64,000 nucleotides of DNA. Source: Kiritimatiellia bacterium (lineage in GTDB: Bacteria > Verrucomicrobiota > Kiritimatiellia > JAAZAB01). Positions 6,903 to 36,428 of this stretch are shown here, in pieces (positions within the stretch are counted from its first letter, which is position 1; each line of letters opens with the position of its first letter). The notes beneath the pieces were generated by a model. That model saw only the letters and a list, made by a program, of their open reading frames with translations. It was not told the origin of the DNA and did not search any database. Location: the NCBI GenBank assembly GCA_040767085.1, contig JAXGPF010000003.1:192001-256000 (forward strand), in the 5' to 3' direction. Position numbers and translations under genes: made by a program.

Positions 6903-6911
6903 CCCACTGCA

Positions 6912-10025: not shown

Positions 10026-10042
10026 AAACGACAGGTTTGGAC

Positions 10043-11608
10043 ATGGAACAAATATTCGTCAGTAGTGTGCAGAAAGAACTTCAGACGGAGCGGATTGCCG
10101 TGCGGGACTTCGTGCGTGGGAACGACTTGTTGCGGCAGTTCTTCAAGGTGTTTTTGTTCGAGGACCTGCCTCCTGCGGATCGGCGCGCGGATGACGTGTA
10201 CTTGGAGCAAGTCAAGGCAAGTCCGATCTACCTGGGGCTCTTCGGCCATGAGTATGGGCGTGCTAACACAGCGGGGATCTCCGCCACGGAGCAGGAGTTC
10301 GACTGCGCCACCCGGCTGCGCAAACGGCGGCTCATCCTGGTCGAGGGACGGGATGACAAAAATCGCGAGCCGAAGATGGCGGCGCTGATCCGGCGGGCGG
10401 GCGACGAGTTGGTCCGCCGGCGGTTCGAGAACACCGACGAACTGCTGCGCCTGCTGTACGGTAGCTTAATTCAATACCTGCAGGACCGCGGATTCGTGGC
10501 CGCGAAGGATTTTGACGCGGCGCCGTGCGAGAACGCGACCCTTAACGACATCTCGGTGGTGAACGTTCGTCGGTTCATCGAAAAGGCGCGGGCCGAACGC
10601 AAGTATGCTCTGCCGTTGGAGACCGCGCCCGAGCAGGCGCTGGCGCACCTGAACCTGCTCGCGGGTCGGATTCCGTCGAGGGGCGCGGTCCTGCTCTTCA
10701 GCGAGCGGCCTGAGCGGTTCATGCCGTCGGCGGAAGTTACCTGTCTGCATTTCCACGGCACCGAGGTGGCCAAGCCGATCCCGAGCCAGCAGGTGTATCG
10801 AGGTCCCTTGTTCGAGGTGGTGGACAAGGCGGTTGATTTCGTCATGGACCGCGTGGCGCGGCGTGTGGAGCCGGGCCAGGCGTCGGTGGCCAGCACCGTG
10901 ACCTATGAGGTGCCGCACGGCGTGATCCGCGAAGCAGTTGTGAACGCGGTGGCCCATCGCAACTATGCATCGAAGGCGGCGGTGCAGGTGATGGTGTTCG
11001 CTGACCGGATCGAGGTATGGAATCCGGGCGGCCTGCCCGAGAACCTAACGGTAGAGGAACTCCATCGCCCACACCATTCGGTTCCTCGCAACCGATTGAT
11101 CTGCGAGCCTCTCTATTTGGCACACTACATCGAGCGGGCGGGTACGGGCACGCTGGATATGATCCGGCTGTGTCGCGAGGCCGACCTGCCTGAACCGGAG
11201 TTCCGGCATGAAGGAGAACGATTCGTGGTCGTGCTCTGGCGGGACTGGCTGACGGATGCGGTTTTAGCGGGACTGGAGTTGAATGAGAGGCAACGGCAGG
11301 TACTTACCGTGATCAAGAGGGATGGCAGGATCACAAATGCCGTCTACCAGAGAGTCGCGAATGCCAGTCGGCCAACGGCGAAGCGCGACTTGGAGGATTT
11401 GGTTGCGAAGGGGGTTGTGGCACCGGCAGGGGCGGGACGCGGCGCCCGCTACGAGTTGCTCCGGAAACGGCTCACAAATGGCTCAAACGGCTCATCCGAG
11501 TTCAAAACAGGAAATGGCTCACAAATGGCTCACAGAGCAACAACGGGGACTCATCACAGACCCCTCAAAAAAGGGGACGCCAGAAGACCAAAAGAGGTAG
11601 AATCATGA
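10043..11608 (+). CDS. DUF4062 + RecG-C-like (HATPase_c_4) + C-terminal HTH protein
   Basis: IFVSSVQKEL...ISATEQEF (DUF4062); REAVVNAVAHRNY, DRIEVWNPGGL, IERAGTG; HTH ITNAVYQ...TAKRDLEDLV. Start taken at MEQIF (10043). Confidence 0.85.
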   Translation: MEQIFVSSVQKELQTERIAVRDFVRGNDLLRQFFKVFLFEDLPPADRRADDVYLEQVKASPIYLGLFGHEYGRANTAGISATEQEFDCATRLRKRRLILVEGRDDKNREPKMAALIRRAGDELVRRRFENTDELLRLLYGSLIQYLQDRGFVAAKDFDAAPCENATLNDISVVNVRRFIEKARAERKYALPLETAPEQALAHLNLLAGRIPSRGAVLLFSERPERFMPSAEVTCLHFHGTEVAKPIPSQQVYRGPLFEVVDKAVDFVMDRVARRVEPGQASVASTVTYEVPHGVIREAVVNAVAHRNYASKAAVQVMVFADRIEVWNPGGLPENLTVEELHRPHHSVPRNRLICEPLYLAHYIERAGTGTLDMIRLCREADLPEPEFRHEGERFVVVLWRDWLTDAVLAGLELNERQRQVLTVIKRDGRITNAVYQRVANASRPTAKRDLEDLVAKGVVAPAGAGRGARYELLRKRLTNGSNGSSEFKTGNGSQMAHRATTGTHHRPLKKGDARRPKEVES

Positions 11609-11896
11609 CCGATCTATCACCTTTCAATCACCCAACCGCCGGAATCCAGCACCCGTTCGCGCCACGCAAGTCCCCACAGTGTGAGCAATTGACTGATAAA
11701 CGACCGACATTCGGGCTGAATGGACCGATCCGGCATACCCCCTCATCCTTGTTTCCAATGAATCCACCGACAATCTATCGACGTTCCGGCCGAATCTACC
11801 GATCAGGCATAGGACTGCGCGGGCGAATCGAACGCGACCGGAAAGGGCGGAACCGGACATGAACTACTTTGTTATCAGCAAGAATGGAGACATGAA

Positions 11897-14746
11897 ATGA
11901 CTACACCCAAGCCCTGGATTGAATCGGTCCGCCTGCACCCCGACGTGCTCAAGGAAAACGCCGATACTGACATCTTCGCCCTGGATCTCGGCCCTCTGGC
12001 CGACGGGTCCGGCACGGTTGCGTCGGTGTACCGTGATGCCGAGTCCTTTTTCCGGGCGTCCTACGTGACAGCCGGGTTGAAGTCGCTCCTCGATGAGGTT
12101 CTTAAACGGCTGTCAGGCAAGGGCGGCGCGCCTGTGCTCAAACTCATGACGCCTTTCGGCGGCGGCAAGTCCCACACGATGGCAGCCCTGCTGCATGCGT
12201 CGCGCGACCGCAAGGCGCTCGACGTGCTGCCCGAAGCCAAGGGACTTGCCAGCCCGACCGACGTGCGTGTCGCTGTGGTGGACGGACAGTTCTTCAACGC
12301 CCAGCAAGGCAAAGAGGCCGATGGCGTCCGCGTGCAGACACTTTGGGGTTGGCTCGCGTTGAAACTTGGTGGGAAGGCCGGCTATGAAACCATGCGCGCC
12401 AATGACGAGGCGCGGGTGTCGCCCGGCGGCGACGACCTCTTGAAGCTCTTTGGGGACAAACCGAACCTGATTCTGCTCGACGAGGCGCTGGAGTATTTGA
12501 TCAACGCTGGCGGAGTGAAGGTTCTGAAGACCGATCTTCGGGAGCAGACGCTGAACTTCCTGAAGGAACTGTCTGTTGCCGTTGCCAATGCCCCTCGGAC
12601 TGCGCTGGTCATGGCGTTGCCATCGAGCAAACCAGGCGAGACTCTGCACCACTTCCAGTTGCTACAAACCCTGGACCACTTCATCGGACGCAAGGATTCT
12701 CTTCGCGAACCCGTGGAACAGGACGAGGTGTTCAGGGTTATTCAACGACGATTGCTGGAGAAGATGCCGGATGACGAGGTGGCGGGGCTGGCCGCGTCGG
12801 CTTACCAGGAGCTTTTCACGCAGATGCGGAAGGCATACGCGGCAAACCCGGCGGAAGAACAGCAAGCCGGTGAAGAGGGTATTCAACTCCGGGACCGGAT
12901 GCGGATGGCCTATCCGTTCCATCCGGCCATCCTCGACTTGATGCGCCAACGCTGGGCATCCTTGCCGGAATACCAGCGCACGCGGGGCGCCCTGCGCTTC
13001 CTGGCGGCCTGTCTGCGGGCGCACCACAAGGCGGGTAAGAGCGGCGTCGTTCTTGGCCCTGGTGACGTAATGCTTGCCGACCACGAGGTCCGGCGCGCCA
13101 TCATAAAGGAACTCGGCCTGATGAACCGGTTCGACGCCGTGTTCCAATCGGACCTTGTGGGCGCAAACTCGACTGCCGGGCGGATTGACAAACTCCGCGC
13201 CAAGTCCAACCCTGCCGAAATTGGCAAGAATGTTGCCCAGCGACTTGCGTCTGCGATCTTCCTCTACTCCTTCGGCGGGTTGCGGCGAGAGGGTGCGGGC
13301 TCAACGGAAGTCCTCCCTCCCGGCGTGTCGGAGGCCGATCTGCTTGCCGGATGTGTGGGACCCGATCTCGACAGTCTGACGGCGAAGGCGTGCCTGTCGG
13401 AACTCAAGCAGTCTTGTCTGTACCTGCACTTCGACGGCGTGCGCTACTGCTTCAAGCAGGACCCCAACGTCACGTTGCTGATCGAGCAGGAAGCCGATGC
13501 GGTGGCACGAGATGAGAGCCTCGTCACTACGCAAATCAGGACGATGCTCGAAGAGCGGCTGGCGGGGCATCATGGTGCCATCGCCTGGCCTGCGGCCTCA
13601 GGCGAGATCCCCGACGAGCAGCCACGTTTCCAAATCGCCTATCTTCCCCTCTCGTTCAGCGGGTTGTCGGCGAAGGCACGGGACGCCGCGGCGCTCGATC
13701 TGGTCGAGAAATACGGCGGCACCCCCCGCAAGTACCGGAATGGCCTCGCGCTGGCGATCCCGGCAACAGACCAAGCAGAAAGTCTGCGACGGGAAGTCCG
13801 ATACCTCAGCGCGGTGGAAAGGGTCAGCAAGGCGGCCAAGAAGCATAATCTGACCAAGGAACAGGCCGACGAACTACGGGAACGGAAGGCCACACATGGC
13901 AGTGCCGTCGAGTCCGCTTTCGGAAAACTGTACCCCGAGGTCTGGCTCCCGAAGCAGGAACAAGGGAATATCGGCTTCGAGAAGATCACGGTTGGCGGAC
14001 GCCCTCTTCAAACGACCGTGAACGCGCAGCACCTTGCGATGGTTTTCGAACGGAACATGGAACTGCTGACTCAAGTCCAACCTCGCGTCTTCTCCAAGTT
14101 GAACCCCGTCAAGGTTGTGGAACTCTTTAAACTGGGCGAAGAAGATCCGCCGAAGATGGGCATTCGATGCAGTGACATTGTGAGCGGGTTCTACTCGTTC
14201 CTTGGCTTTACCCGGCTCACGACCAAGGAGATCGTGCAGGCTGCCATTGCTCGCGGCGTTCAGGAAGGTGTTTTCGGGTACTTCACCGGTTCAGCCCCGA
14301 CGATGGACGCTGGTGGGAAGTACCAAGTCGCGCGGAGCAAGGTGCGGTTTGAGGTTCCACTTGCCGCGGATGAGGTTGACCTCGAGTCCGGTTTCATCAT
14401 GCTGCCAGCGGTAATCCCCGCCGATATGTCTGCCGGAGACCCCGCGCAGGCGGGGGCGGCCCCGATCTCAGGTACCACTCTACCGCCAGGACCGACTCCG
14501 CCTCCTGTACATGGAACCGGACCAGGCCCGATGCCGCCGCCACCGCCGACGGAGAACTACGTCCAGTTGGAATTTACCGCCAACCGGGACCAACTCTTCA
14601 CCGCATGGAACGCCATTGCCAACCTGGCCGACATGGCCGGCACGGTGAAAGTCAATATTACCGCCGAATCCAACAAAGGTTTTGACAAGAGCAAACTTCA
14701 AAACGGCGTCTTGGAACCGTTACGGGAGGCAGACCTGATCTCATAA
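11897..14746 (+). CDS. DUF499-family AAA+ ATPase
   Basis: LMTPFGGGKSH, ILLDE, AYPFHP, YQRTRGALR; GGAG RBS upstream. Confidence 0.92.
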   Translation: MTTPKPWIESVRLHPDVLKENADTDIFALDLGPLADGSGTVASVYRDAESFFRASYVTAGLKSLLDEVLKRLSGKGGAPVLKLMTPFGGGKSHTMAALLHASRDRKALDVLPEAKGLASPTDVRVAVVDGQFFNAQQGKEADGVRVQTLWGWLALKLGGKAGYETMRANDEARVSPGGDDLLKLFGDKPNLILLDEALEYLINAGGVKVLKTDLREQTLNFLKELSVAVANAPRTALVMALPSSKPGETLHHFQLLQTLDHFIGRKDSLREPVEQDEVFRVIQRRLLEKMPDDEVAGLAASAYQELFTQMRKAYAANPAEEQQAGEEGIQLRDRMRMAYPFHPAILDLMRQRWASLPEYQRTRGALRFLAACLRAHHKAGKSGVVLGPGDVMLADHEVRRAIIKELGLMNRFDAVFQSDLVGANSTAGRIDKLRAKSNPAEIGKNVAQRLASAIFLYSFGGLRREGAGSTEVLPPGVSEADLLAGCVGPDLDSLTAKACLSELKQSCLYLHFDGVRYCFKQDPNVTLLIEQEADAVARDESLVTTQIRTMLEERLAGHHGAIAWPAASGEIPDEQPRFQIAYLPLSFSGLSAKARDAAALDLVEKYGGTPRKYRNGLALAIPATDQAESLRREVRYLSAVERVSKAAKKHNLTKEQADELRERKATHGSAVESAFGKLYPEVWLPKQEQGNIGFEKITVGGRPLQTTVNAQHLAMVFERNMELLTQVQPRVFSKLNPVKVVELFKLGEEDPPKMGIRCSDIVSGFYSFLGFTRLTTKEIVQAAIARGVQEGVFGYFTGSAPTMDAGGKYQVARSKVRFEVPLAADEVDLESGFIMLPAVIPADMSAGDPAQAGAAPISGTTLPPGPTPPPVHGTGPGPMPPPPPTENYVQLEFTANRDQLFTAWNAIANLADMAGTVKVNITAESNKGFDKSKLQNGVLEPLREADLIS

Positions 14747-14810
14747 ACCTATATCCGGCAGTTGGCAAGTTTGCTGCAGATGCGCTTGCCTACGTTTCGC
14801 GCAAGCAGGC

Positions 14811-14868
14811 GGCGCGAAGGATGAAGCTGTATAAGCATACCGCGAATCCTTCGTCACAAAGCAGATGC
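14811..14868 (+). repeat. Dispersed hairpin repeat, copy 1
   Basis: 54/58 identical to the reverse complement of 39217-39274; internal CGAAGGAT/ATCCTTCG stem. Confidence 0.85.
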
Positions 14869-14990
14869 AGTAAAATCGCCACCCCCTTCCGTGTTTAAAA
14901 TTCAGGAAACTTTTTTTACACCCAATAGGCGCAGGGTTATTCAAGCATAATGTATTTATTCTCAACCTTTTATCACGTTTCCTGAATTTC

Positions 14991-15190
14991 ACATGCCGGA
15001 TATCCAACAAGCCCAAGAGTTGTCTGCAAAAATACCGCCTGACGGACAAAGGCTGGACAATCCTCAAGCAGGGAGGGCACCCATGAACTATCCGGCTGAA
15101 TCCCGAATTCAGTCCTATAGTTCTCAATACCGTGCAACTGGTGGATTTGCGTGAGATCGGGGAGTTGATTGAAGTATTGCGCAATTCATA
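14991..15190 (+). pseudogene. Small gene remnants (Fic-like C-terminal HTH tail; S24-peptidase-like tail)
   Basis: Frames read NKPKSCLQKYRLTDKG and IRLNPEFSPIVL...IGELIEVL, resembling C-termini of those families; no intact ORF. Confidence 0.4.
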
Positions 15191-15208
15191 GGCCAAGAAG
15201 GAGACATT

Positions 15209-16291
15209 ATGGCGCTTTGGAAAATTGGCGGCAACAAACCCCTAAAAGTAAAACAGACACACTTGCCTCAGGAAAAACTATTGGAGGAACATCTTGAAAA
15301 TTGGATTCAGATGGAACCAACCTTGTTGGGTGAGCCTCTTTTAATTATAGGCCGGCAAGTCATAATCCCCGATACCAAGGACAGATTGGACCTGCTCGCT
15401 CTGGACCCACAAGGTCAAGCCGTTATTATTGAGCTTAAACGCGGCAAGATTAAAGACCCGGTTGACATTCAAGCGCTTCGATACGCCAGCTACATTTCAA
15501 AATGGAAATTTGATCAATTTGAAAGCGTAGCACGTAACTTTTTCGGAAAATCGGGCGACTCGGAATTTAACTTTAACGAAGTTTTCGAAACTTTCTGCCA
15601 GGAATCCGGTTCTGATGAAGTCCCGGACTTAAACGAAGACCAACGGGTAATTATCGTTGGTTCTTCCGTGCGGGACAAGCTTGGTAGCGTCGCTTTATGG
15701 CTTAGAGATCATAATATTGACATCAAACTCATAGAGGTTACAGCCTATAAGGAAGGTGAAACAGTTTTTATCGAGCCCAATGTCATTGTTCCGCTTCCTG
15801 TCAGTAGATTTGCTAAAGTAGGGAAAGGGCCTACTAAAGGCACAGCGGCCTGGCAAACAGATGGGCAAACTTGGCATCTTGAAAAACGATGCAGCCCAAA
15901 AACAAAAGAGATGTTAATGGTGTTCGACAAAGACATCCGAGAAGCTCTTCCTGTTGATGGTCCACATTGGGATCAGAAACAATATGTTGCTTATCGCAAA
16001 AACAATTATAATTGGTTGTGTATCCATACTCTGCCAAAAACGCTGATTTTTGATTTTAATGTGAAAGCCGGCACGTTTAAGTCCGATATTCTTGCCAAGA
16101 CTTTGGGTGTCGTGAAATTCGATAAAGATGAAACTATGTCGGAAAAACTGAACCTGCCAAGTTCTGTTACTGTCCGCAACAGAAACGAAACGCGCGATCG
16201 TATTCGTCTTCGCGTGAAAGCTGATTTTGATCTCAAATCAAAAACATTTATCCAGTTTATGACCCAGGCATTTGAATTATGCCCGAAGTAA
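15209..16291 (+). CDS. NucS/DUF91-like PD-(D/E)xK endonuclease
   Basis: EEHLENWI...RLDLLALD...IIELKRG...QALRY; AGGAG RBS. Confidence 0.8.
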   Translation: MALWKIGGNKPLKVKQTHLPQEKLLEEHLENWIQMEPTLLGEPLLIIGRQVIIPDTKDRLDLLALDPQGQAVIIELKRGKIKDPVDIQALRYASYISKWKFDQFESVARNFFGKSGDSEFNFNEVFETFCQESGSDEVPDLNEDQRVIIVGSSVRDKLGSVALWLRDHNIDIKLIEVTAYKEGETVFIEPNVIVPLPVSRFAKVGKGPTKGTAAWQTDGQTWHLEKRCSPKTKEMLMVFDKDIREALPVDGPHWDQKQYVAYRKNNYNWLCIHTLPKTLIFDFNVKAGTFKSDILAKTLGVVKFDKDETMSEKLNLPSSVTVRNRNETRDRIRLRVKADFDLKSKTFIQFMTQAFELCPK

Positions 16292-16405
16292 TATTCTGCG
16301 TATTTGCTAAATACTGACACTCTGGAATATAAAACTGGAATAAAGATACATCAAACCGGTATTGCGTCTGCCGTATAGGAATATATTTTGATGGAGCAAT
16401 GAATC

Positions 16406-17317
16406 ATGTTCGAAAGACTATTCGCCAAGCGCGGGTTGTCGTTGGATCGGTTACGGGTTTTACTGGAAGTCCGCGAGGCGGGCAGCGTCGTCAAGGCGGC
16501 AGGGGGGGATCCGGTCCGGCAAAGCCAGTATAGCCGGCAATTAAAGGAACTGGATGAATATTTCAGTGTGGAATTGACCTGTCGCAAGGGGCGGCATCTG
16601 GTATTGACCGCCGCGGGCGAAGAATTAGCAAAATTGGTGCAAGAGCATTTTGTGGCACTTGGCAATTTCAACAGGCGCGTGGCAAACGAACCGGTGCCGG
16701 TCTTCATCGGCGCGGGTGAAAGCCTGATCCACTGGCTGTTGTTGCCGCTTGCCGGCAAACTACAGCGCGAATTGCCCGGGATCACCCTGCGAATGATCAA
16801 CCTGACTTCCACTATGATCAATCAAAAATTGGTTGATCGGGAGATAGACCTTGGCATTCTCCGCAAAGATGCCATTGCGCCCACCATTTTGCATCATGTG
16901 ATTGGTAAAATCGTTTACTCGCTATATGCCCCGAAAGCATTGTTCTCGGGCTCTGTCGCTAAAAAGACTGCTCTGTTGAATAAACTGCCGGTCGCAACAA
17001 TGCCCGGCAATTCATCGTTCGGACGGCATTTGCACCAGTTGGCTGAAAAAGCCAATATCCGTCTCAATGTCCGGCTTGAATGTGACACTTTTACCGGATT
17101 GGCACAGGCGGTCCAAACCGGAGAATACGCGGCCATCCTGCCCGATCTGGCCGCTTACGCCATGGATGAGCAAACCGACAAAATCACTTTGCCACTGCTT
17201 AAACCGTTGACGCGCGAAATAAGTCTGGCCTGGCTGCAACGCAAGGTTGATTTATGTCCCGAATGGGAAAAAACACGACAGTGGCTTACACAAAATCTTA
17301 ATATGACTATAAAGTAA
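16406..17317 (+). CDS. LysR-family transcriptional regulator
   Basis: N-terminal wHTH (SRQLKELDEYF...LTAAGEEL), 303 aa, substrate-binding domain (EIDLGI). Confidence 0.92.
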   Translation: MFERLFAKRGLSLDRLRVLLEVREAGSVVKAAGGDPVRQSQYSRQLKELDEYFSVELTCRKGRHLVLTAAGEELAKLVQEHFVALGNFNRRVANEPVPVFIGAGESLIHWLLLPLAGKLQRELPGITLRMINLTSTMINQKLVDREIDLGILRKDAIAPTILHHVIGKIVYSLYAPKALFSGSVAKKTALLNKLPVATMPGNSSFGRHLHQLAEKANIRLNVRLECDTFTGLAQAVQTGEYAAILPDLAAYAMDEQTDKITLPLLKPLTREISLAWLQRKVDLCPEWEKTRQWLTQNLNMTIK

Positions 17318-17418: not shown

Positions 17419-19023
17419 ATGGCCGCAGCAACAGATCAAAATATCGGCATGACAGTGTTCGAACTGCAATCGTTTGAATCCTGGCAAAATCGGATAGAAG
17501 CGGCCGCACAATCCGCCGGCGCCGGCATCACGCGCAAGGGGGCCGGTTGCCAGCTCTGGATGCCGAACCAGTTACTTCCCTTGCGCAAAACCAACTTGCA
17601 TTATGCCGATGGCGTTAAAATTTTCCGGGAATGGCTTGGCCCACGCCGCAACGCATTAGCCATTATCCCTCATCGCGTCTATTTTGAACCCGGCGCAAAT
17701 ACCCCCAGTATCAAGCCGGAACGGATTTTGATTGAAGGCGCACGTCCGGCATTGCCCAGCCCGGACAAACGAATCAGCTCATGTTTGGAATGGGCCGGGA
17801 TTTTATCAAAACATATTGATGGATTTGGTCCTGACCCTATCACGGTCGGACGAGTTCGGCATGATTTACACAAATCAACGCAATTGATTTTTGGCGGCGG
17901 CGCAGTTGTCACACCCGGTTCTAAAATCAGTTTGGCACTGATGAGCCACGGAGGCTATTCCACGCCTGCCCGGCTTCAGATTGAACTCGTGGCGCCCTCC
18001 GCCGCCGCCGGCAAAACAAAAACATATCAAACACTTTTGGCAAATGCCTTGAAGCGCTGTAAATGCCACGGCGTGATCTCGATGTTGACTTACGACAAAT
18101 TGCTGACACGCTTACAATCCGGAACGCCGGTAGCGACGCCCGGCACTTGTATTCTGCTCGCTGTAACCGGCAAAAAAGGCCTGCCGCTGGCCCCGGAATC
18201 CGAGACGCTGATAAATCTCATGGCTAATTTCAACATCCCGTTTCGCATGTTCTCCGTTGACAATCCGGCGCTGAACTGGTCGGCTTTGGATCAAGCCGGA
18301 TCGTTGATTACCGGTGCGGGCGGCATTCCATTCATCACCAAATTACCCTGGCCGGATGATATTGGGGAGCCATTCATTCTGGGAGTGGATGTTGGGCACC
18401 CGCCGACAGGCGAGGAAAGCCAGGTTGTCATTAGTTTAATGGATCATCAAGGTGTTTTGCTGGGGAGTTGGCGCCAATCCCAGCCGCGTGATGAGACAAT
18501 TCACACCGAAACGCTGCAAAATGGATTGACGTGGGCGCTTGAAAAAGCACGGTCAAATATTGCAAACGCAACCCCATCATTCCTGGTGCTGCGCGATGGC
18601 AGGTTGCATAAAGGCGAAAACCCCACATTTTACAGCCAGATACTGGGGCCAAAGACAACATTGATTGAATTTTCCAAACACAACACGCCTGAAATGTTCA
18701 TTATGGGTGCATGCCCGGCATCCGCCAAAGCCGGAACAGAGTGCCTTTTAACCGGTAGTTCCACACCATTTATCACTCCGGTGTCAGCGCGCATGAGCAG
18801 TGATTTATCCCGGACATTCAAAATCAACATGCCACCGGCATGGGATGGCCTGGGGCTTGGAATTGACAGAGTCAGCGAGATTGTGGTAGGATTATCTTAT
18901 ACTTCGGGACTCGGGTTAGCGCCACACGCATTACCCGGCCCAATTTACTGGGCGGACGGCATTGCCGCCATTTGCGAGCACAACCATCAATTTGCGGGGC
19001 AGAATATAATGGAGGGAAGATGA
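17419..19023 (+). CDS. Prokaryotic Argonaute (compact; MID-PIWI with intact DEDD tetrad)
   Basis: ILGVDVGH (D324), PRDETI (E359), VLRDGRL (D393), LPGPIYWADG (D513); L2/MID entry QLIFGGG...HGGYSTP; GAGGIPF before PIWI. Confidence 0.88.
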   Translation: MAAATDQNIGMTVFELQSFESWQNRIEAAAQSAGAGITRKGAGCQLWMPNQLLPLRKTNLHYADGVKIFREWLGPRRNALAIIPHRVYFEPGANTPSIKPERILIEGARPALPSPDKRISSCLEWAGILSKHIDGFGPDPITVGRVRHDLHKSTQLIFGGGAVVTPGSKISLALMSHGGYSTPARLQIELVAPSAAAGKTKTYQTLLANALKRCKCHGVISMLTYDKLLTRLQSGTPVATPGTCILLAVTGKKGLPLAPESETLINLMANFNIPFRMFSVDNPALNWSALDQAGSLITGAGGIPFITKLPWPDDIGEPFILGVDVGHPPTGEESQVVISLMDHQGVLLGSWRQSQPRDETIHTETLQNGLTWALEKARSNIANATPSFLVLRDGRLHKGENPTFYSQILGPKTTLIEFSKHNTPEMFIMGACPASAKAGTECLLTGSSTPFITPVSARMSSDLSRTFKINMPPAWDGLGLGIDRVSEIVVGLSYTSGLGLAPHALPGPIYWADGIAAICEHNHQFAGQNIMEGR

Positions 19024-19048: not shown

Positions 19049-20557
19049 ATGACACAAGTGCGGATAAATAACTTTAAATGTTTTGAAGAGGCTATTGTGC
19101 CGTTGCGCCGCTTGACCTTTATTTATGGACAAAACAGTTCCGGTAAAAGCACGATTTTTCAGGCAATTAATCTGATCCGGCTGGTCATTATGCAACTTAA
19201 TAAAAAAGAGAGTAGATACAGCAAAAACAAGGAACAAGACAAGTCGCGCGAAGATGAAGATATCGGAATGGATGCTTGGAAACGGATCCCTTGGTTTCGC
19301 GGTGGCATTTCAGCCATGCAACGGGACAAAAACGATCCCATTAAAATTGGCTTTACATTGAAATTGGAAGGAGATGGCACAGAAGGAAGCACCTATATTA
19401 CCACAGATATGTCTGTTGGTAATAAGTGGGATTTAGGAAAACACGGCAATTCCCTGCCGGACAAAATTGTTTTTGGCTTTCAATATGGCAAACTTGATGC
19501 GTTCCGCGACAAGGATAACAAATATTTAGATTTAACGATCACGATAAACAATCGCGTGCCAGAAAACCAACAAAGCGTTTTTAGCCGGCAATTCGGCTTT
19601 GTGCAAGTGTCACCGACCCTGTTGGATTGGTTTTGCAGGGAATATAGTCCCGCAAGCGAGCAAATATTCCGGGATTATTTTAATAGCCCATTACCCTTGA
19701 ATTGGGGCGAGGTGCCCTTTTTTAAATCCTTTAACAAAAAGCCTAAATATCCCAATAATGATCATGCGTTTAATAAGGCCTACAAATGGGTTAATGGTTC
19801 GCTTGAACGCGCGTGGGGAGAAATAGAGGATTATCTTAAACCAGCACTCTTGATGGGGTTTTATTCCGGACATATATCCGCCGATGAACATTATATAGGG
19901 CACGATATTCGAAATACTAACGTAAGATTTCATTTAAAAAAAGAATTTGATGATTTCCTAAATAATGAAAAGGTTATAAACCAGGTAAACGAAGCTCTCA
20001 ACCTTCTGGATACTCCACATCGTCTGGATTCAAAGAAAGGCATTCTTGATCTGCGCAAGCAAACATCTGAAAAAGGGAGCGTTTTGACGGAAGTTGGTTA
20101 TGGTATCCAATACCTTGTCCCGAGGCTTTTGTTGCTTTTTGGCGGAGAGCATCCACTATGCATGATCGAGGAGCCAGAAGCACATGTGCATCCGCGTTTA
20201 CAAGCCAAGCTTGGTTCATTGTTTTTAAAACAATCAGCATCTGCTGATATGATGCGGCAACTTATAATAGAAAGTCATAGTGAAAATCTTATTTTGCAAA
20301 TTAAACGCAATATTCATGATATGGCTGAAGCGGATGCAGAAACAGCGAAAAAATGGGCTGATAACATTTTGGCGCTTTACGTTGATTACTCACAGGACAC
20401 TGCAACGCCAGATATTGAAGCCGACGCGGAAAAGCCACAGGCAAACGTTGAGGCAACTCCCCGGATATCATACATCCGAATTGACAGCGAGGGTAATTTT
20501 ATGGATTATTGGCCTAAAGGATTCTTCCCTGAACGTCAAGAAAACCTTTACTACTGA
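19049..20557 (+). CDS. ABC-type (AAA_21-like) ATPase with DUF3696 C-terminus
   Basis: INNFKCF, Walker A GQNSSGKST, VGYG signature, IEEPEAHVHP, IIESHSE, WPKGFF. Confidence 0.9.
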   Translation: MTQVRINNFKCFEEAIVPLRRLTFIYGQNSSGKSTIFQAINLIRLVIMQLNKKESRYSKNKEQDKSREDEDIGMDAWKRIPWFRGGISAMQRDKNDPIKIGFTLKLEGDGTEGSTYITTDMSVGNKWDLGKHGNSLPDKIVFGFQYGKLDAFRDKDNKYLDLTITINNRVPENQQSVFSRQFGFVQVSPTLLDWFCREYSPASEQIFRDYFNSPLPLNWGEVPFFKSFNKKPKYPNNDHAFNKAYKWVNGSLERAWGEIEDYLKPALLMGFYSGHISADEHYIGHDIRNTNVRFHLKKEFDDFLNNEKVINQVNEALNLLDTPHRLDSKKGILDLRKQTSEKGSVLTEVGYGIQYLVPRLLLLFGGEHPLCMIEEPEAHVHPRLQAKLGSLFLKQSASADMMRQLIIESHSENLILQIKRNIHDMAEADAETAKKWADNILALYVDYSQDTATPDIEADAEKPQANVEATPRISYIRIDSEGNFMDYWPKGFFPERQENLYY

Positions 20558-20564
20558 TTTTGCT

Positions 20565-21752
20565 ATGCTCAATTATTGCACCATAGACCCATTTCTCGTT
20601 ACGATGGCGAGAACACCAACAATCCCCTCATCGGGTAACAATATACAAATATCTACTACTTCGGAACCAGCTCCCTCGTCTACTGTCCCCAGACAGGTTG
20701 GTCACAGTTCAATCCGATATTTTCTGAAGAGAGTTGCCAGCCGGCACATTTTGTGCGACTTTTTCCTGGGAGTGAGTGGATCCGGAACGTGTAAATATCG
20801 AAAATATTTTGAGGACATAGTTTTTGCCGGTGAAAATCATTTTGCCGTCTACTGGCGGGAATTTTCTTTGGCTCGACATTTTGAGCGATTAAAAACAGAT
20901 TTTACGAATTTCCGTGATAAGGATCGCCTTGCGAAAATATGCCCGGATGTTTGCCCAAAATCATCTGCGGGTGCTGATGACTGGGGCAACTGGGCCATGA
21001 AAATGGGCTACCTGTTGGCAGGATGCGCCGCCGACGATATAACAATAATTATTGCGCACCATAAGACGGTTGAAATGCTGAATGCGCTACTTAACCATTT
21101 TAAATGTGCGCTTACCCCTGAAACAAGCGCTTATATTGAAAAGTATCGGCGAAACTGCGTAACCGTAGAGAACCAAGCTGAAGCAAGCGGCTTGAAGTTG
21201 AGCGGCAACTTGGAGGTCCTCGAAAATTCGTGGTTTTTGCTTTCAAGCGTGGAACGGTTTGACCGCCGGATAAATCTTTCAATAGGCCTAAATTTAGCGG
21301 GAATACCGGTGACCGAGTTTTTAAAATTGTTAAACCCTATTCGCCAATGCTTTCCGCATGTCTACGCAATACAATCCTCCAAGCCACCAAATAAAACCTT
21401 GGCTTTATGGAAACAAAACAATTTTAATATCAATATAATTACCACTGATAGTTTACCAAAAGAGCATAAAGGGCTTTGGCATGATCGGTTTATTGTATTT
21501 GCTTCACATCCTCGAGAGCAGGGCATGCGATCACCACACCGGTTTGTAGCGTTGGTATTTTCAGCGCCATTTGAGCAGATATTTTATGTGCCTGAACAAC
21601 ATTTTATGCGCCATAATACTTTTTATTTGCGCCAAGGTACTTGCCTTTTGCGCTGTGACAGTGATTGTTCTAATACTCCAGGGTCTCATGAAAATATAGC
21701 AAGCTTTCTTGCAAATACTTCAGCTACGCTCCCCCCTTTATCTGAACCATGA
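20565..21752 (+). CDS. Hypothetical protein with C-terminal HDRF motif (possible PLD-like nuclease)
   Basis: ATG 7 nt after the ATPase stop; GLWHDRFIVF; overlaps the next start (ATGA). Confidence 0.6.
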   Translation: MLNYCTIDPFLVTMARTPTIPSSGNNIQISTTSEPAPSSTVPRQVGHSSIRYFLKRVASRHILCDFFLGVSGSGTCKYRKYFEDIVFAGENHFAVYWREFSLARHFERLKTDFTNFRDKDRLAKICPDVCPKSSAGADDWGNWAMKMGYLLAGCAADDITIIIAHHKTVEMLNALLNHFKCALTPETSAYIEKYRRNCVTVENQAEASGLKLSGNLEVLENSWFLLSSVERFDRRINLSIGLNLAGIPVTEFLKLLNPIRQCFPHVYAIQSSKPPNKTLALWKQNNFNINIITTDSLPKEHKGLWHDRFIVFASHPREQGMRSPHRFVALVFSAPFEQIFYVPEQHFMRHNTFYLRQGTCLLRCDSDCSNTPGSHENIASFLANTSATLPPLSEP

Positions 21753-23233
21753 AGACAAACGCTATGCCTGTCTCAAACAAAGTATCGTGTGGCATCGGAA
21801 ACTATCCTGATGCTTTATTACGGCTATCTCAACAGCATCAGCCTTTTTGCGATTGGCTCTTGCTCGGACGTTACATTCTTCTGGGAGACGATGGAATTTC
21901 CAATGATGAGCGCAAGGATATCAAGCGGACGAAAGAATATCAACAATTTGCCAATATGTTTTTTGATTTAATCCAGAATATCGAGCGTAATACTCTTGTT
22001 ATTAACTCCGAAACCGCAGACATCCTGACTGGTCTTGCGGCATTTTATGTTTCTTTACGATGTGTTGTGTCGTACAAAAAGAATGTCATGATCAAGGCCA
22101 TGCAATACAACATATTGTTGTATAATTCTATAATATCGGCAATGAAGAGAAACAAAATACACTCATCTATATTTGCCGAAAACATAGTCGCTGGATGTGA
22201 AATTGTGCTCAAGGCAACCGCTAATGACAAGAAGAAAACCCCAGAAGCGCTGGATGCCGGCGTTGATCTGTTGGGTAAATTAATGGAAAGAGTTCCAGGT
22301 GCAACGCCGCTGGGTGACGCCATATTGCGTTATATACGTGATTGGCAGGCGCTGGGCTCCATTGAGGATTCCTGGCTTGAACAAAAACGTGATCAGGCTT
22401 TGTTGCGTTATGTAGGGATAGACGACAACTATTTAAGCAAATATGAAGAATTCAAGGCATGGACGAATTATCACCCTGATGATAATGGTGCAGCAAAAAG
22501 ACTTTTCTTTTTTGCTAAACCTTTAGTTGAAGTGTTTTGCCGGGAAAAACGTTATGAAGACGCCGCTAAAGTATGTGTTGATATTTATAATTTGCACATT
22601 CTTTCAGACACATACAAGCAAGCCATGTTTTGCTTGTTTTACGACTCTTTAACCTTGGATTTGTCTAACGCCAAATGTGAGATCAACCTCGCCCTAAATG
22701 CGCTTATAATTATTTTTGACAAACTAAAACCGGCGGATAATTTTGTTTCAGCCCATTTTGCTGAATTAAAATTATGGGCTGCTATTGGACATATTCAGGC
22801 AAGACGTTCAAAAGACAACGCATCCATTATTAAAGATTTGCCAGAACCCTTGCCCATATCTGAACATGCTCAAAATAAAATTGCCTGGGAAATTTATCGC
22901 CGTTGCAAGCTTTGTATAAAAACTGACCCAATAATGGTTATTGACATGCTTGAACTATATGCTCATTTATCGGAAATAGAAAAGCCGTCTTTGCTTCATT
23001 CCATGATGTTGCAATACGCAACACGTGTTGGTTCATCTTGGACTGGTTTTATTAAATTTATGCGTACACGAGATATGGCTACTTTCCGCCCGGAGGATTT
23101 CAAGACGACAGTTTATGGCAATCGCACATATAACAGTTTGGTTGATAACACTATAAAATGCCTATATCAAACAATAAAACATCAAAAATGGCGTATTATG
23201 GAATCGGCAAGACCCACCGTCAAGGCAATATAG
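21749..23233 (+). CDS. N-terminal part of a helical/TPR-OB-fold protein (DUF7017/TOTE-like), probably a split gene
   Basis: AWEIY...EKPSLLHSMMLQYA...FRPEDF...YNSLV resembles the N-half of TPR + S1/CSD proteins. Confidence 0.6.
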   Translation: MKTNAMPVSNKVSCGIGNYPDALLRLSQQHQPFCDWLLLGRYILLGDDGISNDERKDIKRTKEYQQFANMFFDLIQNIERNTLVINSETADILTGLAAFYVSLRCVVSYKKNVMIKAMQYNILLYNSIISAMKRNKIHSSIFAENIVAGCEIVLKATANDKKKTPEALDAGVDLLGKLMERVPGATPLGDAILRYIRDWQALGSIEDSWLEQKRDQALLRYVGIDDNYLSKYEEFKAWTNYHPDDNGAAKRLFFFAKPLVEVFCREKRYEDAAKVCVDIYNLHILSDTYKQAMFCLFYDSLTLDLSNAKCEINLALNALIIIFDKLKPADNFVSAHFAELKLWAAIGHIQARRSKDNASIIKDLPEPLPISEHAQNKIAWEIYRRCKLCIKTDPIMVIDMLELYAHLSEIEKPSLLHSMMLQYATRVGSSWTGFIKFMRTRDMATFRPEDFKTTVYGNRTYNSLVDNTIKCLYQTIKHQKWRIMESARPTVKAI

Positions 23234-23239
23234 GCCGTA

Positions 23240-24699
23240 TTGGACTATCCCCAAAATATCCTGTGGGATTTTGCGCGGATAGTGTTATTTTCTAAGAAAG
23301 TGAGTGAAAAACGGATTTTTCTGACCATCTGGAAAGTGAAATAGTGGTCTCCAACTGGAAATCCCGTATAATTGGGGTTGAACCAACCAAGAAGGAGACC
23401 ACCGGAATGAATAATAGTCAGACGGCATTCAAATTGCGATCTCAACTTTTAAAATATTTGGGGATATTTTCACCCCATTTTTCCAAACCAGCATTGGCTT
23501 TTCTTGGTGACATGCTCTATGGGATCCAGGCATCCAAAGATATCAAGCTGAGTTGCATTGGCAGGGGCCTGGACGAGGTGATTTCGCTCAAGAAAACCGA
23601 AGAGCGATTAAGCCGGAATCTGGGATGTGAGGGGCTGGCTCAGAGGGTATCGGATTGTTTGGCGTGTGAAGGCGCCAGGCACATAGGGAATGACACCTTG
23701 ATTGTGATAGATCCGACCGATATTCGGAAGCTCTACGCCCGGAAAATGCCATATTTGGCAAAAGTGCGAGACGGGAGCAGCGGCGAGATCGGCAACGGGT
23801 ATCATTGCGGTGTTGCAGTGGCTTGCGAAAGCGGCGGACGCAGTATAGTCCCTTTGCATCTGCGCCTATGGTCGAGCACCGCGCCTGATTTCAAAAGTGA
23901 AAACGATGAGATTGAACAAATCGTCAGCACTATCTGCGCGGGTGCAAAACGACGCGGGATTTACGTTGTGGACCGCGGCGGCGACCGTGACAAGCTGTTT
24001 AATGTGTTAATTGACAGACGCTTGCGATTCATTGTGCGTTTGATTGGCCACCGCCATCTGTTGTGGAGAAAACGCCCCATCCTGGCTGAAAAGCTAGTTG
24101 GTAAATGCCGGATTTCTCACGTTGAAACCATCCGTCGTGAAACTGCCGAAGGTGAAAAAATTTACCGGATTGAATACGGTGCAATTAATGTGTTTCTGCC
24201 GGAACATCCCGATAAACCATTGCGCATGGTCGTTGTGAAGGGATTTGGAGCAAAGCCCATGATGCTCCTGACGGACTTGGCCGGTGGAGATTCCCGGAAA
24301 GGTCTCTGGCAGGTCATTGAAGGATACCTGAGTCGCTGGCGGGTCGAAGATGCGATTCGCTACATCAAGCAAAGCTATCGCCTTGAGGACATCCGCCTGA
24401 TGGATTACACGCGGCTTCGCAACATGATGGCCATGCTGCTGGCCACTGTTTTCTTTGCTTCCGTGTGGCTCGGCAAATCTTTACGCAAAAGCATTCTGGT
24501 CGGCAACATCACCCGCGTTTCCAAGCGACTTTTCGGTGTAGTGGAGTTCCATTATTACGCTATCGCTGACGGCATTGCCGCCTTGTTGCGCCGTTTCGGA
24601 AAATGGCACGGCGCCTGGAATGGCCCCGCCCGAAACACTGTCTCACACCAATTGGAATTAGCCTTGTTTGATTCAGGATAAAAAATGGGGATAGTCCAA
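23240..24699 (+). mobile_element. IS4-family insertion sequence, 1460 bp
   Basis: 14-bp perfect IRs TTGGACTATCCCCA (23240-23253 and 24686-24699); 13-bp target duplication AATATAGGCCGTA (23227-23239, 24700-24712). Confidence 0.93.
23407..24681 (+). CDS. IS4-family DDE transposase
   Basis: IVIDPTD, VVDRGGD, YLSRWRVEDAIRYIK (Y-2-R-3-E-6-K). Confidence 0.92.
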   Translation: MNNSQTAFKLRSQLLKYLGIFSPHFSKPALAFLGDMLYGIQASKDIKLSCIGRGLDEVISLKKTEERLSRNLGCEGLAQRVSDCLACEGARHIGNDTLIVIDPTDIRKLYARKMPYLAKVRDGSSGEIGNGYHCGVAVACESGGRSIVPLHLRLWSSTAPDFKSENDEIEQIVSTICAGAKRRGIYVVDRGGDRDKLFNVLIDRRLRFIVRLIGHRHLLWRKRPILAEKLVGKCRISHVETIRRETAEGEKIYRIEYGAINVFLPEHPDKPLRMVVVKGFGAKPMMLLTDLAGGDSRKGLWQVIEGYLSRWRVEDAIRYIKQSYRLEDIRLMDYTRLRNMMAMLLATVFFASVWLGKSLRKSILVGNITRVSKRLFGVVEFHYYAIADGIAALLRRFGKWHGAWNGPARNTVSHQLELALFDSG

Positions 24700-24762
24700 A
24701 ATATAGGCCGTAAAGTATACGGAAGCACTTGATGAAGCATCCGTAGAGCTATAACCATAATA

Positions 24763-24798
24763 CACCCACTCCCGTATAGACGGGGGTGGGTGATTTTT
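24763..24798 (+). terminator. Strong hairpin followed by a T tract
   Basis: CACCCACTCCCGT-ATAG-ACGGGGGTGGGTG-ATTTTT. Confidence 0.55.
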
Positions 24799-24872
24799 AA
24801 AGAGATCTCTTTGCTTGCTCTTGTATAGTTTAGCCTTCGTAATTGGTATTGCCAAATATTCAGGATATTAAG

Positions 24873-26151: not shown

Positions 26152-26260
26152 GAGACGCTGTAGAGGTGTGTTTGAGGCCGATGAATGCAATTGCTCGGCC
26201 GGTTATTACGGGTCAGTATGACCCAATGTCGATTCGATGTTAAATCCTCTGCAGCGTCTC
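26152..26260 (+). ncRNA. Candidate RT-associated structured ncRNA
   Basis: 15-bp closing stem GAGACGCTGTAGAGG/CCTCTGCAGCGTCTC (one G-U pair) enclosing hairpins GGCCGA/TCGGCC and GGGTCA/TGACCC; ends 8 nt before the RT ATG. Confidence 0.65.
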
Positions 26261-26268
26261 TTTATTTT

Positions 26269-34786: not shown

Positions 34787-34922
34787 TGGTTGTTTTTCTC
34801 CCGCAGAGCATGCCGCTGGAGCTTTGCGCGAGGGCGTTATACCTTGGGCGGCATTGCAACGGAATGGTCGGCGGAGCGGAATGGATTTCGCTTGGCGGCG
34901 GGCCAGACGGGAGGGGTGCGCA

Positions 34923-36419: not shown

Positions 36420-36428
36420 TCAAACATC

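Follow-up and report, generated by a model that had tools for sequence, protein, structure and literature searches.

The window, by which we mean the whole stretch of 64 000 nucleotides analysed here, encodes a compact prokaryotic Argonaute (pAgo) made up of a small N-terminal domain, an L2-like linker, a MID-like domain and a PIWI domain. The chain is modelled with high confidence in an Argonaute fold, and the four residues of its DEDX tetrad are equivalent to those of TtAgo and conserved throughout its family. The interpretation that we favour, and regard as probable with some reserve, is that of a guide-directed slicer working in a defence island, to which an ABC ATPase and a third protein encoded alongside are accessory (Table 1).

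Identification and domain layout

The pAgo gene has a possible alternative start at an in-frame ATG at codon 11 (17449), where one homolog begins. PADLOC pAgo models matched the 534-aa protein with an E value of 4.6e-13. A search with a Piwi HMM, suggested as a check in an earlier note on this DNA, did return Pfam Piwi (E 9.2e-4), but at 19 bits the match did not reach the curated cut-off of 28.9 bits. A search of PDB with the single sequence resulted in MpAgo only (E 1.2), a match so weak that a profile was needed; in the profile search the best sequence match was MpAgo (E 0.0016). Alignment of the family profile by hhalign with five reference pAgos, all long forms and including TtAgo (taken from plasmid pTT27, L016:1543-3600), gave probabilities of 95-98%, the five being about equally distant from the compact family (E 2e-14 to 2e-8); the derivation from long-A put forward in the earlier note is one possible origin. 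At the sequence level, similarity to long pAgos and eukaryotic slicers is at the limit of detection. The assignment to proteins with the MID-PIWI core of pAgos and an RNase H fold is based on hhalign and Foldseek, with Pfam Piwi below its cut-off.

AF2 modelling with an alignment of 103 full-length family sequences (alignment A2) gave a pLDDT of 96.1 and a pTM of 0.94, replacing a run with 10 sequences only that had a pLDDT of 68 and an unmodelled C-terminus. Comparison of the model against PDB using Foldseek yielded 274 matches at E<=0.001; the top matches listed were all full-length Argonaute or PIWI proteins and included many known slicers, with TM scores of 0.66-0.74 (for example, Siwi with E 1.3e-22, and TMq of 0.70 for hAgo2, 0.70 for KmAgo and 0.66 for MpAgo). 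The structure prediction that the earlier note had proposed as a check therefore agrees with full-length Argonautes.

The claim that only some 110 aa precede the L2-like segment was supported by BLASTP against a Halobaculum long pAgo, in which residues 106-400 of the query aligned with 398-697 of the subject (E 1e-12); the MID-like alignment begins at query 176-177, corresponding to TtAgo 335. The protein thus departs from the N-L1-PAZ-L2-MID-PIWI architecture of long-A pAgos in having about 105 aa before L2; in TtAgo and the Halobaculum pAgo, the long forms used for this comparison, N, L1 and PAZ together occupy ~270 to 400 residues. That this leaves no room for N, L1 and PAZ, as had been suggested, is consistent with a Pfam scan of 90 of the 103 members, none of which matched PAZ, ArgoN or ArgoL1 at E<=0.001. 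The N-terminal domain was modelled confidently, with strands at 9-16, a helix at 22-32, strands at 36-47 and a hairpin at 61-89, and contains conserved residues (W22 in 93/103, W47 in 84/103 and R86 in 85/103 members). When the first 110 or 178 residues, or the L2 piece, were compared with the five long pAgos by hhalign, no similarity was found (all probabilities <=1.4%). Atlas look-alikes with PAZ or ArgoL1 for residues 1-150 had scores of 0.86-0.88 and, being below 0.9, provide leads only to the identity of this domain.

Table 1. Features of the compact pAgo locus, in window coordinates
Feature	Position	Strand	Basis
LysR-family regulator, 102 nt upstream of pAgo	16406..17317	+	Pfam HTH_1 and LysR_substrate
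Compact pAgo gene, 534 aa	17419..19023	+	ORF; ATG start, TGA stop
N-terminal domain, aa 1-105, small alpha/beta, in place of N-L1-PAZ	17419..17733	+	AF2 model, conservation
L2-like linker, aa 106-175	17734..17943	+	BLASTP to Halobaculum long pAgo
MID-like domain, aa 176-300, 5'-end pocket non-canonical	17944..18318	+	hhalign to TtAgo 335-458
PIWI domain, aa 301-534, DEDD codons at 18388, 18493, 18595, 18955	18319..19020	+	Pfam, PDB profile search, hhalign
NsnB-like ABC ATPase, AAA_15/AAA_21, WPxGFFPER tail	19049..20557	+	Pfam; PADLOC NsnB 1.1e-36
Orphan gene X', 395 aa, NsnC position, 8 nt past ATPase stop	20565..21752	+	ORF and start

Catalytic tetrad, MID pocket and family

The tetrad is encoded by GAT (D324, 18388-18390), GAG (E359, 18493-18495), GAT (D393, 18595-18597) and GAC (D513, 18955-18957), in the contexts GVDVGH, RDET, LRDGR and YWADG, respectively, with a spacing of 35/34/120. 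Its equation with TtAgo D478, E512, D546 and D660 in the earlier note was recovered exactly when the A2 profile was aligned with TtAgo (probability 95%, E 2.8e-8), the residue pairs being read by counting along the printed profile-profile alignment. In the 837-aa Halobaculum pAgo, the residues opposite the four tetrad columns are D/E/D/D (probability 98.2%, E 5e-14). In the PDB profile search the alignment with MpAgo takes in the first three tetrad residues, and a PDB entry carrying RAG in place of RDG was aligned at D393. Across the 103 full-length members the columns hold D, E and D without exception (103/103 each), followed by D in 90, N in 11 and H in two, a conservation that in these aligned sequences is far above chance. 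In the AF2 model D324 ends strand 319-326, E359 lies in the loop after strand 347-356, D393 ends strand 388-393 and D513 is within helix 507-516; these modelled positions fit an RNase H-like PIWI domain. The family therefore has the DEDX tetrad of long-A pAgos and not the DEDX-less PIWI domain of short pAgos, and the initial view of a genuine short Argonaute with a full tetrad is borne out by the open reading frame, the alignment to TtAgo and the conservation in the 103 members. On this basis the compact pAgo is predicted to be catalytically active.

The MID-like domain differs from TtAgo at the positions of the pocket for the 5'-end of the guide, which in TtAgo involves R418, K422, S432, Q433 and K457. 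The counterparts in hhalign were S261, I265, F275, R276 and G299, such that S, I and G stand where TtAgo has R418, K422 and K457, and R276 takes the place of Q433. Conserved residues in this domain are R276 (92/103), S288 (86/103) and Q292 (86/103). The family does not conserve the basic residues typical of a 5'-phosphate pocket, so it may load guides differently or only weakly.

When 1.84 billion representatives were searched with a profile, 237 relatives were obtained at E<=1e-3, including 136 at E<=1e-30. Among the 150 relatives listed (of the 237), 93 are 495-600 aa in length and two exceed 600 aa, and a close homolog of 532 aa is 88% identical. The members, at ~510-560 aa, make up a sizeable prokaryotic Argonaute family that is so far unnamed. 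The earlier note had asked whether homologs are full-length, making this copy a truncation; as they are mostly 495-600 aa, the gene is complete. The idea that an ordinary long pAgo gene has been truncated here or is decaying, which would account for the short length and the weak Pfam Piwi match, is scarcely credible: it is contradicted by the lengths of the relatives, the 88%-identical homolog among them, by the conservation of the N-terminal domain itself and by the confident fold of the whole chain (pLDDT 96), and was rejected.

Pfam Piwi was matched at E<=0.001 by 17 of the 90 members scanned, PADLOC pAgo models recognised family members with E values of only 1e-5 to 1e-13, and no NCBIfam model was found for the family, which is therefore probably absent from pAgo censuses. 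With the 103-sequence profile, a word-indexed search retrieved 11 proteins, all already known, and tblastn of plasmids detected a single distant long pAgo but none of the family.

Gene neighbourhood and the NsnB-like ATPase

The window (W) was compared with 14 other loci. At six of the 15 loci (W and L001-L005) a homolog of the LysR regulator (39-60% identity) lies next to the pAgo gene or the operon containing it, and the island around the window gene contains Hma, PDC-S11 and a UG39 reverse transcriptase (Pfam, PADLOC). The earlier remark that no APAZ, TIR or Sir2 gene is recognisable nearby was borne out, in that Pfam and PADLOC identified no APAZ, TIR, Sir2, Mrr/DUF4365 or Aga partner among the neighbours in the window and the 14 other loci, but the picture of a lone gene was incomplete, given the LysR regulator, the NsnB-like ATPase and the third gene. 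The only 'Aga' match, in the ORF at 9779-11608, was discarded; it is 5.8 kb away, has no counterpart at the other loci and coincides with a HATPase_c_4 region.

This survey bears on the proposal of a conventional short pAgo, that is, a dead sensor with an unrecognised APAZ-effector, for which X' or the 300-aa proteins encoded upstream at other loci would be candidates. The size of the protein is near that of short pAgos and there are unannotated neighbours, including X', a 300-aa coiled-coil protein (L008, L011, L012 and L014) and proteins of 317-377 aa (L001, L002, L003 and L005). We nevertheless consider this very improbable. Pfam and PADLOC identified no APAZ-effector (Sir2, TIR, Mrr/DREN) fused or adjacent to the gene in the window and the 14 other loci, and no neighbour is common to all 15 loci; PADLOC Class I pAgo models matched none of six family members (the window protein and five representatives); the chain already contains L2-like and N-terminal parts of its own; and DEDX, invariant in the compact family, is missing from the short clade according to the accessible text of PMC6299218.

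A PIWI-RE or DdmE-like, helicase-coupled PIWI protein is another reading that the neighbourhood makes hardly probable. A divergent PIWI domain, a non-PAZ N-terminus and a ParE-UvrD helicase fusion immediately upstream of the gene at two distant loci (L006 and L007) would be in keeping with it. PIWI-RE are characterised by an operon with a DinG helicase and a restriction-fold nuclease and by conserved R and E residues in PIWI. Against this reading, DinG helicase was found at none of the 15 loci, no conserved DinG-type helicase or restriction-fold nuclease is found beside the family, and the window gene is without a helicase partner. PIWI-RE is here set apart by its description and its neighbours, not by sequence: PsPIWI-RE has ~780 aa, and the tetrad is missing in most PIWI-RE (accessible text of PMC10991935).

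The ATPase gene begins 26 nt past the pAgo stop codon, and a terminator scan showed no terminator-like site in the intervening DNA. A related ATPase is encoded near pAgo at 7 of the 15 loci, the other eight being without one; it is directly beside pAgo in W, L001 and L003, and L005 has the rearranged order ATPase-X-pAgo, preceded by a divergent LysR gene. NsnB was the best PADLOC match for six of the seven pAgo-linked ATPases and the second best for the remaining one, and alignment of the window ATPase with the six others (A4) revealed a common GxG motif and WPxGFFPER tail. Pfam DUF3696 was matched in the ATPases of L001 and L003 and was not reported at E<=0.01 for that of the window, which corresponds to NsnB of Menshen (an ABC ATPase with a DUF3696 tail) on the basis of PADLOC and its aligned tail. 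The ATPase gene is followed by a downstream gene (~320-395 aa) in constant order, on either side of pAgo.

The downstream gene of the window, X', had no match in Pfam, PADLOC, NCBIfam or PDB, and in a set of 5.8 billion proteins only X' itself was retrieved, with no homolog at near length. It was unrelated to the X proteins of L001, L003 and L005 by hhalign (probability 0.3%), and a PDB sequence search with the X alignment gave zero matches. Complex prediction for the ATPase (A4) and X' resulted in a score of 0.00 with an uncertain fold of X' itself, and is evidence neither way. The G+C content is 41-43% for the ATPase gene and X' versus 51-52% for the pAgo and LysR genes; given this difference and the absence of the ATPase from eight loci, the genes could be merely juxtaposed in the island. 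DUF262, the domain of NsnA, was detected by Pfam in 0 of 16 ORFs of the window and 0 of 35 neighbour ORFs of the loci, and a DUF262-type NsnA is thus missing. The recurrent link with an NsnB-like ATPase suggests a new coupling of Argonautes to ATPase-controlled effectors.

The same genes could represent a three-gene, Menshen-like abortive-infection system in which the pAgo would stand for NsnA and act mainly as nucleic-acid sensor, the NsnB-like ATPase as transducer and the variable third protein as effector, the tetrad serving guide generation or being secondary. The NsnB matches with their common motifs, the constant order of ATPase and following gene, and the missing DUF262 gene among the 16 window ORFs are in line with this, as is the orphan nature of X', since NsnC of Menshen is hypervariable (accessible text of PMC12065111). 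We regard it as unlikely, although a serious contender, because eight loci have no such ATPase, because an invariant DEDX suggests that the pAgo itself is catalytic, because X' has no detectable similarity to NsnC models or the X proteins of the other three loci, and because the G+C difference leaves room for chance adjacency.

Relation to known systems and proposed function

Active long-A pAgos (TtAgo, KmAgo, CpAgo and halobacterial ones) and the eukaryotic proteins hAgo2 and Siwi share with the compact pAgo the L2-MID-PIWI body and a homologous DEDX, and active long-A pAgos and eukaryotic slicers are its best fold matches; long-A genes, like that of the compact pAgo, are found among defence genes. 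In contrast to them, the compact family is without N, L1 and PAZ, with ~105 aa instead, and without the canonical basic MID pocket. MpAgo from Marinitoga piezophila has a DEDN tetrad, uses 5'-OH guides, contains N and PAZ domains and is associated with CRISPR loci. DEDN is also present in 11 of the 103 compact members, and each of the two MID pockets is non-canonical; MpAgo is longer (642 aa).

Short pAgos (SPARTA, SPARSA, SPARDA) are of similar size and equally PAZ-less, but are described in the accessible parts of PMC6299218 and 10.1101/2025.04.08.647717 as being without DEDX and reliant on an APAZ-effector partner, whereas the compact family has the former and not the latter. The truncated long-B protein AfAgo/fAfAgo ('pseudo-short') is likewise a PAZ-less derivative of a long architecture; it has no catalytic activity, and an upstream gene restores N-L1-L2 to it (PMC10954474), unlike the compact pAgo with its intact tetrad and with L2 and a small N-terminal domain in the same chain. 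The isolated MID-PIWI lobe of human AGO2 (mini-AGO2), which shares the absence of the N-PAZ lobe, still cleaves, although at a far lower rate than full-length AGO2 (accessible text of PMC13486602), indicating, as far as that text goes, that catalysis can persist when N-PAZ is lost. In contrast to this slow, artificial protein, the compact family is natural and its tetrad is under long-term selection. Menshen (NsnA-NsnB-NsnC) resembles the window operon in that a hypervariable gene comes after the gene for an NsnB-like ABC ATPase, whose tail is of the DUF3696 type, but in the window an Argonaute takes the position of the absent DUF262 protein NsnA. NsnC consists of an inPIN domain and an effector domain and is encoded downstream of NsnB, a position that X' shares.

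As a slicer, the compact pAgo would take up a short guide of nucleic acid, bound by a MID pocket unlike the canonical R/Y-K-Q-K type, the guide would pair with invader nucleic acid, and the target would be cut via two metal ions held by D324, E359, D393 and D513, all within the defence island. In the window clade, the pAgo beside its LysR-type regulator would be co-transcribed with the NsnB-like ABC ATPase and the variable downstream protein, which most likely assist the pAgo, either as transducer and effector or by supplying guides; these are taken to be accessory and not obligatory subunits, as they are missing in other branches of the family. Alternatively, the conserved tetrad could act in the processing of guides or in some other reaction, and not in slicing of the target. 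A bolder and less probable reading is that of a natural mini-Argonaute lineage able to slice in the absence of N, L1 and PAZ and binding its guide through a new kind of MID pocket; in one clade it would have been joined to a Menshen-type ABC ATPase and a hypervariable effector, with LysR as the switch, and the Argonaute would replace the DUF262 DNA sensor in a hybrid Argonaute/Menshen defence.

The compact pAgo is apparently an undescribed new variant that has lost the PAZ domain and kept the DEDX site. No description of such compact pAgos and no link between Argonautes and DUF3696 were found in the literature searched; the 31 truncated long pAgos of PMC6299218 may include relatives, and none were found in the readable part of its supplementary files. 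In the current classification, as given in the accessible parts of PMC6299218, PMC10954474 and 10.1101/2025.04.08.647717, PAZ-less pAgos (the short clade and PAZ-reduced long-B) are catalytically dead, and PIWI inactivation precedes PAZ loss. A large family without N-L1-PAZ in which DEDX is strictly selected would be a natural counter-example to the rule that PAZ-less means dead, and would make the role of the N-PAZ lobe testable, which gives the compact pAgo real mechanistic interest. With its front half absent yet the four cutting residues kept, the protein may be a naturally miniaturised programmable nuclease, which, if active, would have a size of about 530 aa.

The compact pAgo and its family

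The 534-aa Argonaute of the window (pAgo) is encoded by a single ORF with an ATG start and a TGA stop, and all four residues of the PIWI catalytic tetrad, D324, E359, D393 and D513, are present as the earlier note had described. Standard libraries barely detected it: the Pfam Piwi model matched at E 9.2e-4 (score 19 bits, cut-off 28.9), NCBIfam gave no match, the best PADLOC pAgo model (E 4.6e-13) covered residues 135-398 only, and a PDB search with the single sequence reached MpAgo at E 1.2. A word-indexed search identified 10 relatives (43-88% identity), nine of 502-592 aa and one a 374-aa piece. A profile built from these (A1), run without a length limit against 1.84 billion cluster representatives, detected 237 proteins at E<=1e-3, of which 182 reached E<=1e-10 and 136 E<=1e-30. 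Among the 150 matches listed, 93 had 495-600 aa, two were longer (701 and 818 aa) and the 55 shorter ones are taken to be contig-end fragments; these lengths therefore indicate that short length is the native state of the family. A truncated copy of a full-length Argonaute, the alternative raised earlier, is contradicted by this family-wide shortness.

In an alignment of 103 full-length family members (A2), columns 324, 359 and 393 were D, E and D, respectively, in all sequences, and column 513 contained D in 90, N in 11 and H in 2. The tetrad of MpAgo is DEDN. Variation like that at 513 is tolerated in active Argonautes: the available text of Ryazansky et al. (PMC6299218) gives the catalytic motif as DEDX, where X is D, H or K.

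Active site, fold and missing domains

Comparison of A2 with TtAgo, taken from plasmid pTT27, using hhalign (probability 95%, E 2.8e-8) extended over MID and PIWI, and the residue pairs counted on the printed alignment, D324-D478, E359-E512, D393-D546 and D513-D660, were exactly those proposed previously. An 837-aa Halobaculum plasmid pAgo (probability 98.2%, E 5e-14) likewise had D/E/D/D in the tetrad columns. Among PDB entries, the A1 profile matched MpAgo at E 0.0016 and AaAgo at E 0.0053, with an MpAgo entry carrying RAG in place of RDG aligned at D393. The structure prediction suggested in the earlier note gave a confident AlphaFold2 model from the 103-sequence alignment (mean pLDDT 96.1, pTM 0.94; only residues 1-5 uncertain). 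Foldseek returned 274 PDB matches at E<=0.001, and those listed at the top were all full-length Argonaute or PIWI proteins, many of them known slicers, including Siwi (E 1.3e-22, TMq 0.69-0.74), hAgo2 (E 1.0e-20, TMq 0.70), KmAgo (E 8.8e-20, TMq 0.70) and MpAgo (E 2.3e-18, TMq 0.66). Judged by secondary structure, the modelled tetrad lies on two strand ends, the equivalent of the glutamate-finger loop and the C-terminal helix, positions predicted to fit the PIWI fold.

The 5'-phosphate pocket of TtAgo, which we take to consist of R418, K422, S432, Q433 and K457, corresponded to S261, I265, F275, R276 and G299 of pAgo in a region of modest alignment confidence. In A2, column 261 is variable, 265 hydrophobic, 275 aromatic, 276 R in 92 of 103 and 299 A or G. 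Since these residues differ from TtAgo, the MID pocket is, on this modest-confidence alignment, probably non-canonical and the guide type not predictable.

BLASTP against the Halobaculum pAgo aligned from residue 106 (subject 398) and the MID alignment from residue 176 (TtAgo 335), so residues 106-175 would represent L2, preceded by only about 105 residues, close to the earlier estimate of about 110. Residues 1-105 were confidently modelled as a small alpha/beta domain, in which W22, W47 and R86 are conserved, and comparison with five long pAgos detected nothing similar in any of their regions; language-model look-alikes of the N-terminal part were PAZ/ArgoL1 proteins, with scores below 0.9 and as leads only. 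A Pfam scan of 90 of the 103 members identified Piwi in 17, and no other family, at E<=0.001.

In architecture the compact pAgo is similar to short pAgos, but these are defined by an APAZ partner and by the absence of DEDX, whereas it has DEDX and no APAZ partner; in active site and fold it is similar to long-A pAgos, but without their N-L1-PAZ half. PIWI inactivation has been proposed to precede PAZ loss (PMC10954474), and a canonical PAZ is present in active long-A pAgos (10.1101/2025.04.08.647717). The available text of PMC6299218 describes the tetrad as missing from all short and long-B pAgos, and 31 long pAgos without PAZ as scattered over the tree; relatives may be among these 31, and literature searches found no natural PAZ-less family described as active. 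The compact, PAZ-less family retaining DEDX appears to be an undescribed variant of pAgo.

The best-supported reading is that the compact pAgo would be a guide-dependent endonuclease working without an N-PAZ lobe. Such slicing is plausible in principle because the isolated MID-PIWI lobe of human AGO2 still cleaves, at a markedly reduced rate, according to the available text of PMC13486602. Without catalysis, a tetrad invariant, apart from its fourth position, in >100 divergent sequences would be hard to explain. The earlier interpretation stands in part: pAgo is short by family design and keeps DEDX, but it is not alone.

The cassette and its conservation

In the clade of the window, pAgo is embedded in a cassette of a LysR regulator, pAgo, an NsnB-like ATPase and a variable gene, here the orphan X'. 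A scan of the gap between pAgo and ATPase found no terminator-like site. The best PADLOC match of the window ATPase was NsnB (1.1e-36) of the defence system Menshen, in which NsnA is a DUF262 sensor, NsnB an ABC ATPase with DUF3696 acting as transducer and NsnC a hypervariable effector; the available text of the Menshen paper has no occurrence of PIWI or Argonaute (PMC12065111). No Argonaute-DUF3696 link was found in the literature. The genes adjoining the window pAgo include no Mrr gene and, as the earlier note had observed, none for APAZ, TIR or Sir2. The sole 'Aga'-named PADLOC match of the window ('Aga_SIR2-PNTD', with a fused pAgo model) fell on the HATPase_c_4 region of a gene inside the cluster of the Hma defence system, and this gene matched no APAZ chain in the PDB.

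Scanning GTDB species genomes with two peptide patterns, which is no census, gave 14 loci (L001-L014) from Verrucomicrobiota, Patescibacteria, Actinomycetota, Alteromonas, Alcanivorax, Porticoccaceae and unclassified MAGs. When ORFs within 9 kb were clustered across 15 loci including the window, the NsnB-like ATPase was present in seven (the window, L001, L002, L003, L005, L010 and L012), LysR in six (the window and L001-L005) and a 317-377-aa protein directly 3' of the ATPase, designated X, in four (L001, L002, L003 and L005). NsnB was the best PADLOC match of six of the seven ATPases and second best of the other; they have in common Walker A, a GxG motif and a C-terminal WPxGFFPER tail, which is Pfam DUF3696 in L001 and L003.

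The window ATPase and X' may adjoin pAgo by chance or through a module swap that kept the architecture. The ATPase is absent from eight of 15 loci, and that of the window is ~30% identical to those elsewhere, while the pAgos are ~53-55% identical; G+C is 41-43% in ATPase and X' against 51-52% in LysR and pAgo, a gap which suggests different histories of the two halves. However, the cassette is retained although permuted: a divergent LysR is followed in L001 by pAgo, ATPase and X, and in L005 by ATPase, X and pAgo, whose ends overlap. This retention argues for a functional link. As a pair, the ATPase and X may supply guides or serve as a second-line effector, or pAgo may control them.

Surrounding genes

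G+C falls to 0.43-0.50 at about 14-28 kb, against 0.55-0.63, and the pAgo gene lies inside this dip, in a chromosomal defence and mobile island. No tRNA genes were found in the window. An insertion sequence appears to interrupt the PDC-M16B/DUF7017-like gene. Between the island and the housekeeping genes are a transposon-like pair and an AbiEi gene.

ParE-UvrD fusions (39% mutual identity) are an alternative partner of the family, found in two distant loci of the 15; a conserved ~300-aa protein directly upstream of the pAgo homolog, with weak coiled-coil-like matches to crescentin, SMC and PbeC, occurs in four. The pAgo homolog of L007, an Actinomycetota MAG, is likely a pseudogene or assembly error.

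Features of the window and of loci with pAgo homologs
Feature	Position	Remarks
Hma system (PADLOC)	1039-14746	HmaA 1039-4587 (2e-192), HmaB 6912-10025 (6e-122), HmaC 11897-14746 (5e-107)
AlbA_2-STAND NTPase	4584-6902	embedded in Hma cluster
DUF4062-HATPase_c_4-wHTH	9779-11608	embedded in Hma cluster
PDC-S11 candidate defence gene	15209-16291	NucS-like domain; PADLOC E 3e-42
LysR regulator	16406-17317	102 nt upstream of pAgo
pAgo	17419-19023	+ strand
D324 codon	18388	GVDVGH
E359 codon	18493	RDET
D393 codon	18595	LRDGR
D513 codon	18955	YWADG
ABC ATPase, AAA_15/AAA_21 type	19049-20557	26 nt downstream of pAgo
X'	20565-21752	395 aa; 8 nt after ATPase
PDC-M16B/DUF7017-like gene	21749-26057	pieces 21749-23233 (overlaps X' stop by 4 nt) and 24843-26057
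DDE_Tnp_1 transposase	23344-24681	between the two pieces
UG39-class defence-associated reverse transcriptase	26185-27987	PADLOC E 7e-114
rve-integrase, then AAA_22 ATPase	34695-37259	transposon-like pair
AbiEi antitoxin-domain gene	40120-40908	
gyrB, gyrA, prfC	50-57 kb	housekeeping
L002, two genes after pAgo	11614-16121	1077-1159-aa (TPR-rich) and 333-362-aa proteins, between pAgo and ATPase pair
L004, two genes after pAgo	11397-15660	same size ranges; C-terminal 300 aa of larger protein in common with L002
L003, PDC-M16B/DUF7017-like homolog	15226-16533	downstream of pAgo cassette
L006, ParE-toxin-like domain + UvrD-type helicase	7881-10010	directly 5' of pAgo homolog
L007, ParE-toxin-like domain + UvrD-type helicase	7718-9835	directly 5' of pAgo homolog
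L007, pAgo homolog	9842-11403	two ORFs, 286 + 225 aa
L008, ~300-aa protein	8340-9251	
L011, ~300-aa protein	8959-9960	split
L012, ~300-aa protein	9026-9925	
L014, ~300-aa protein	8260-9243
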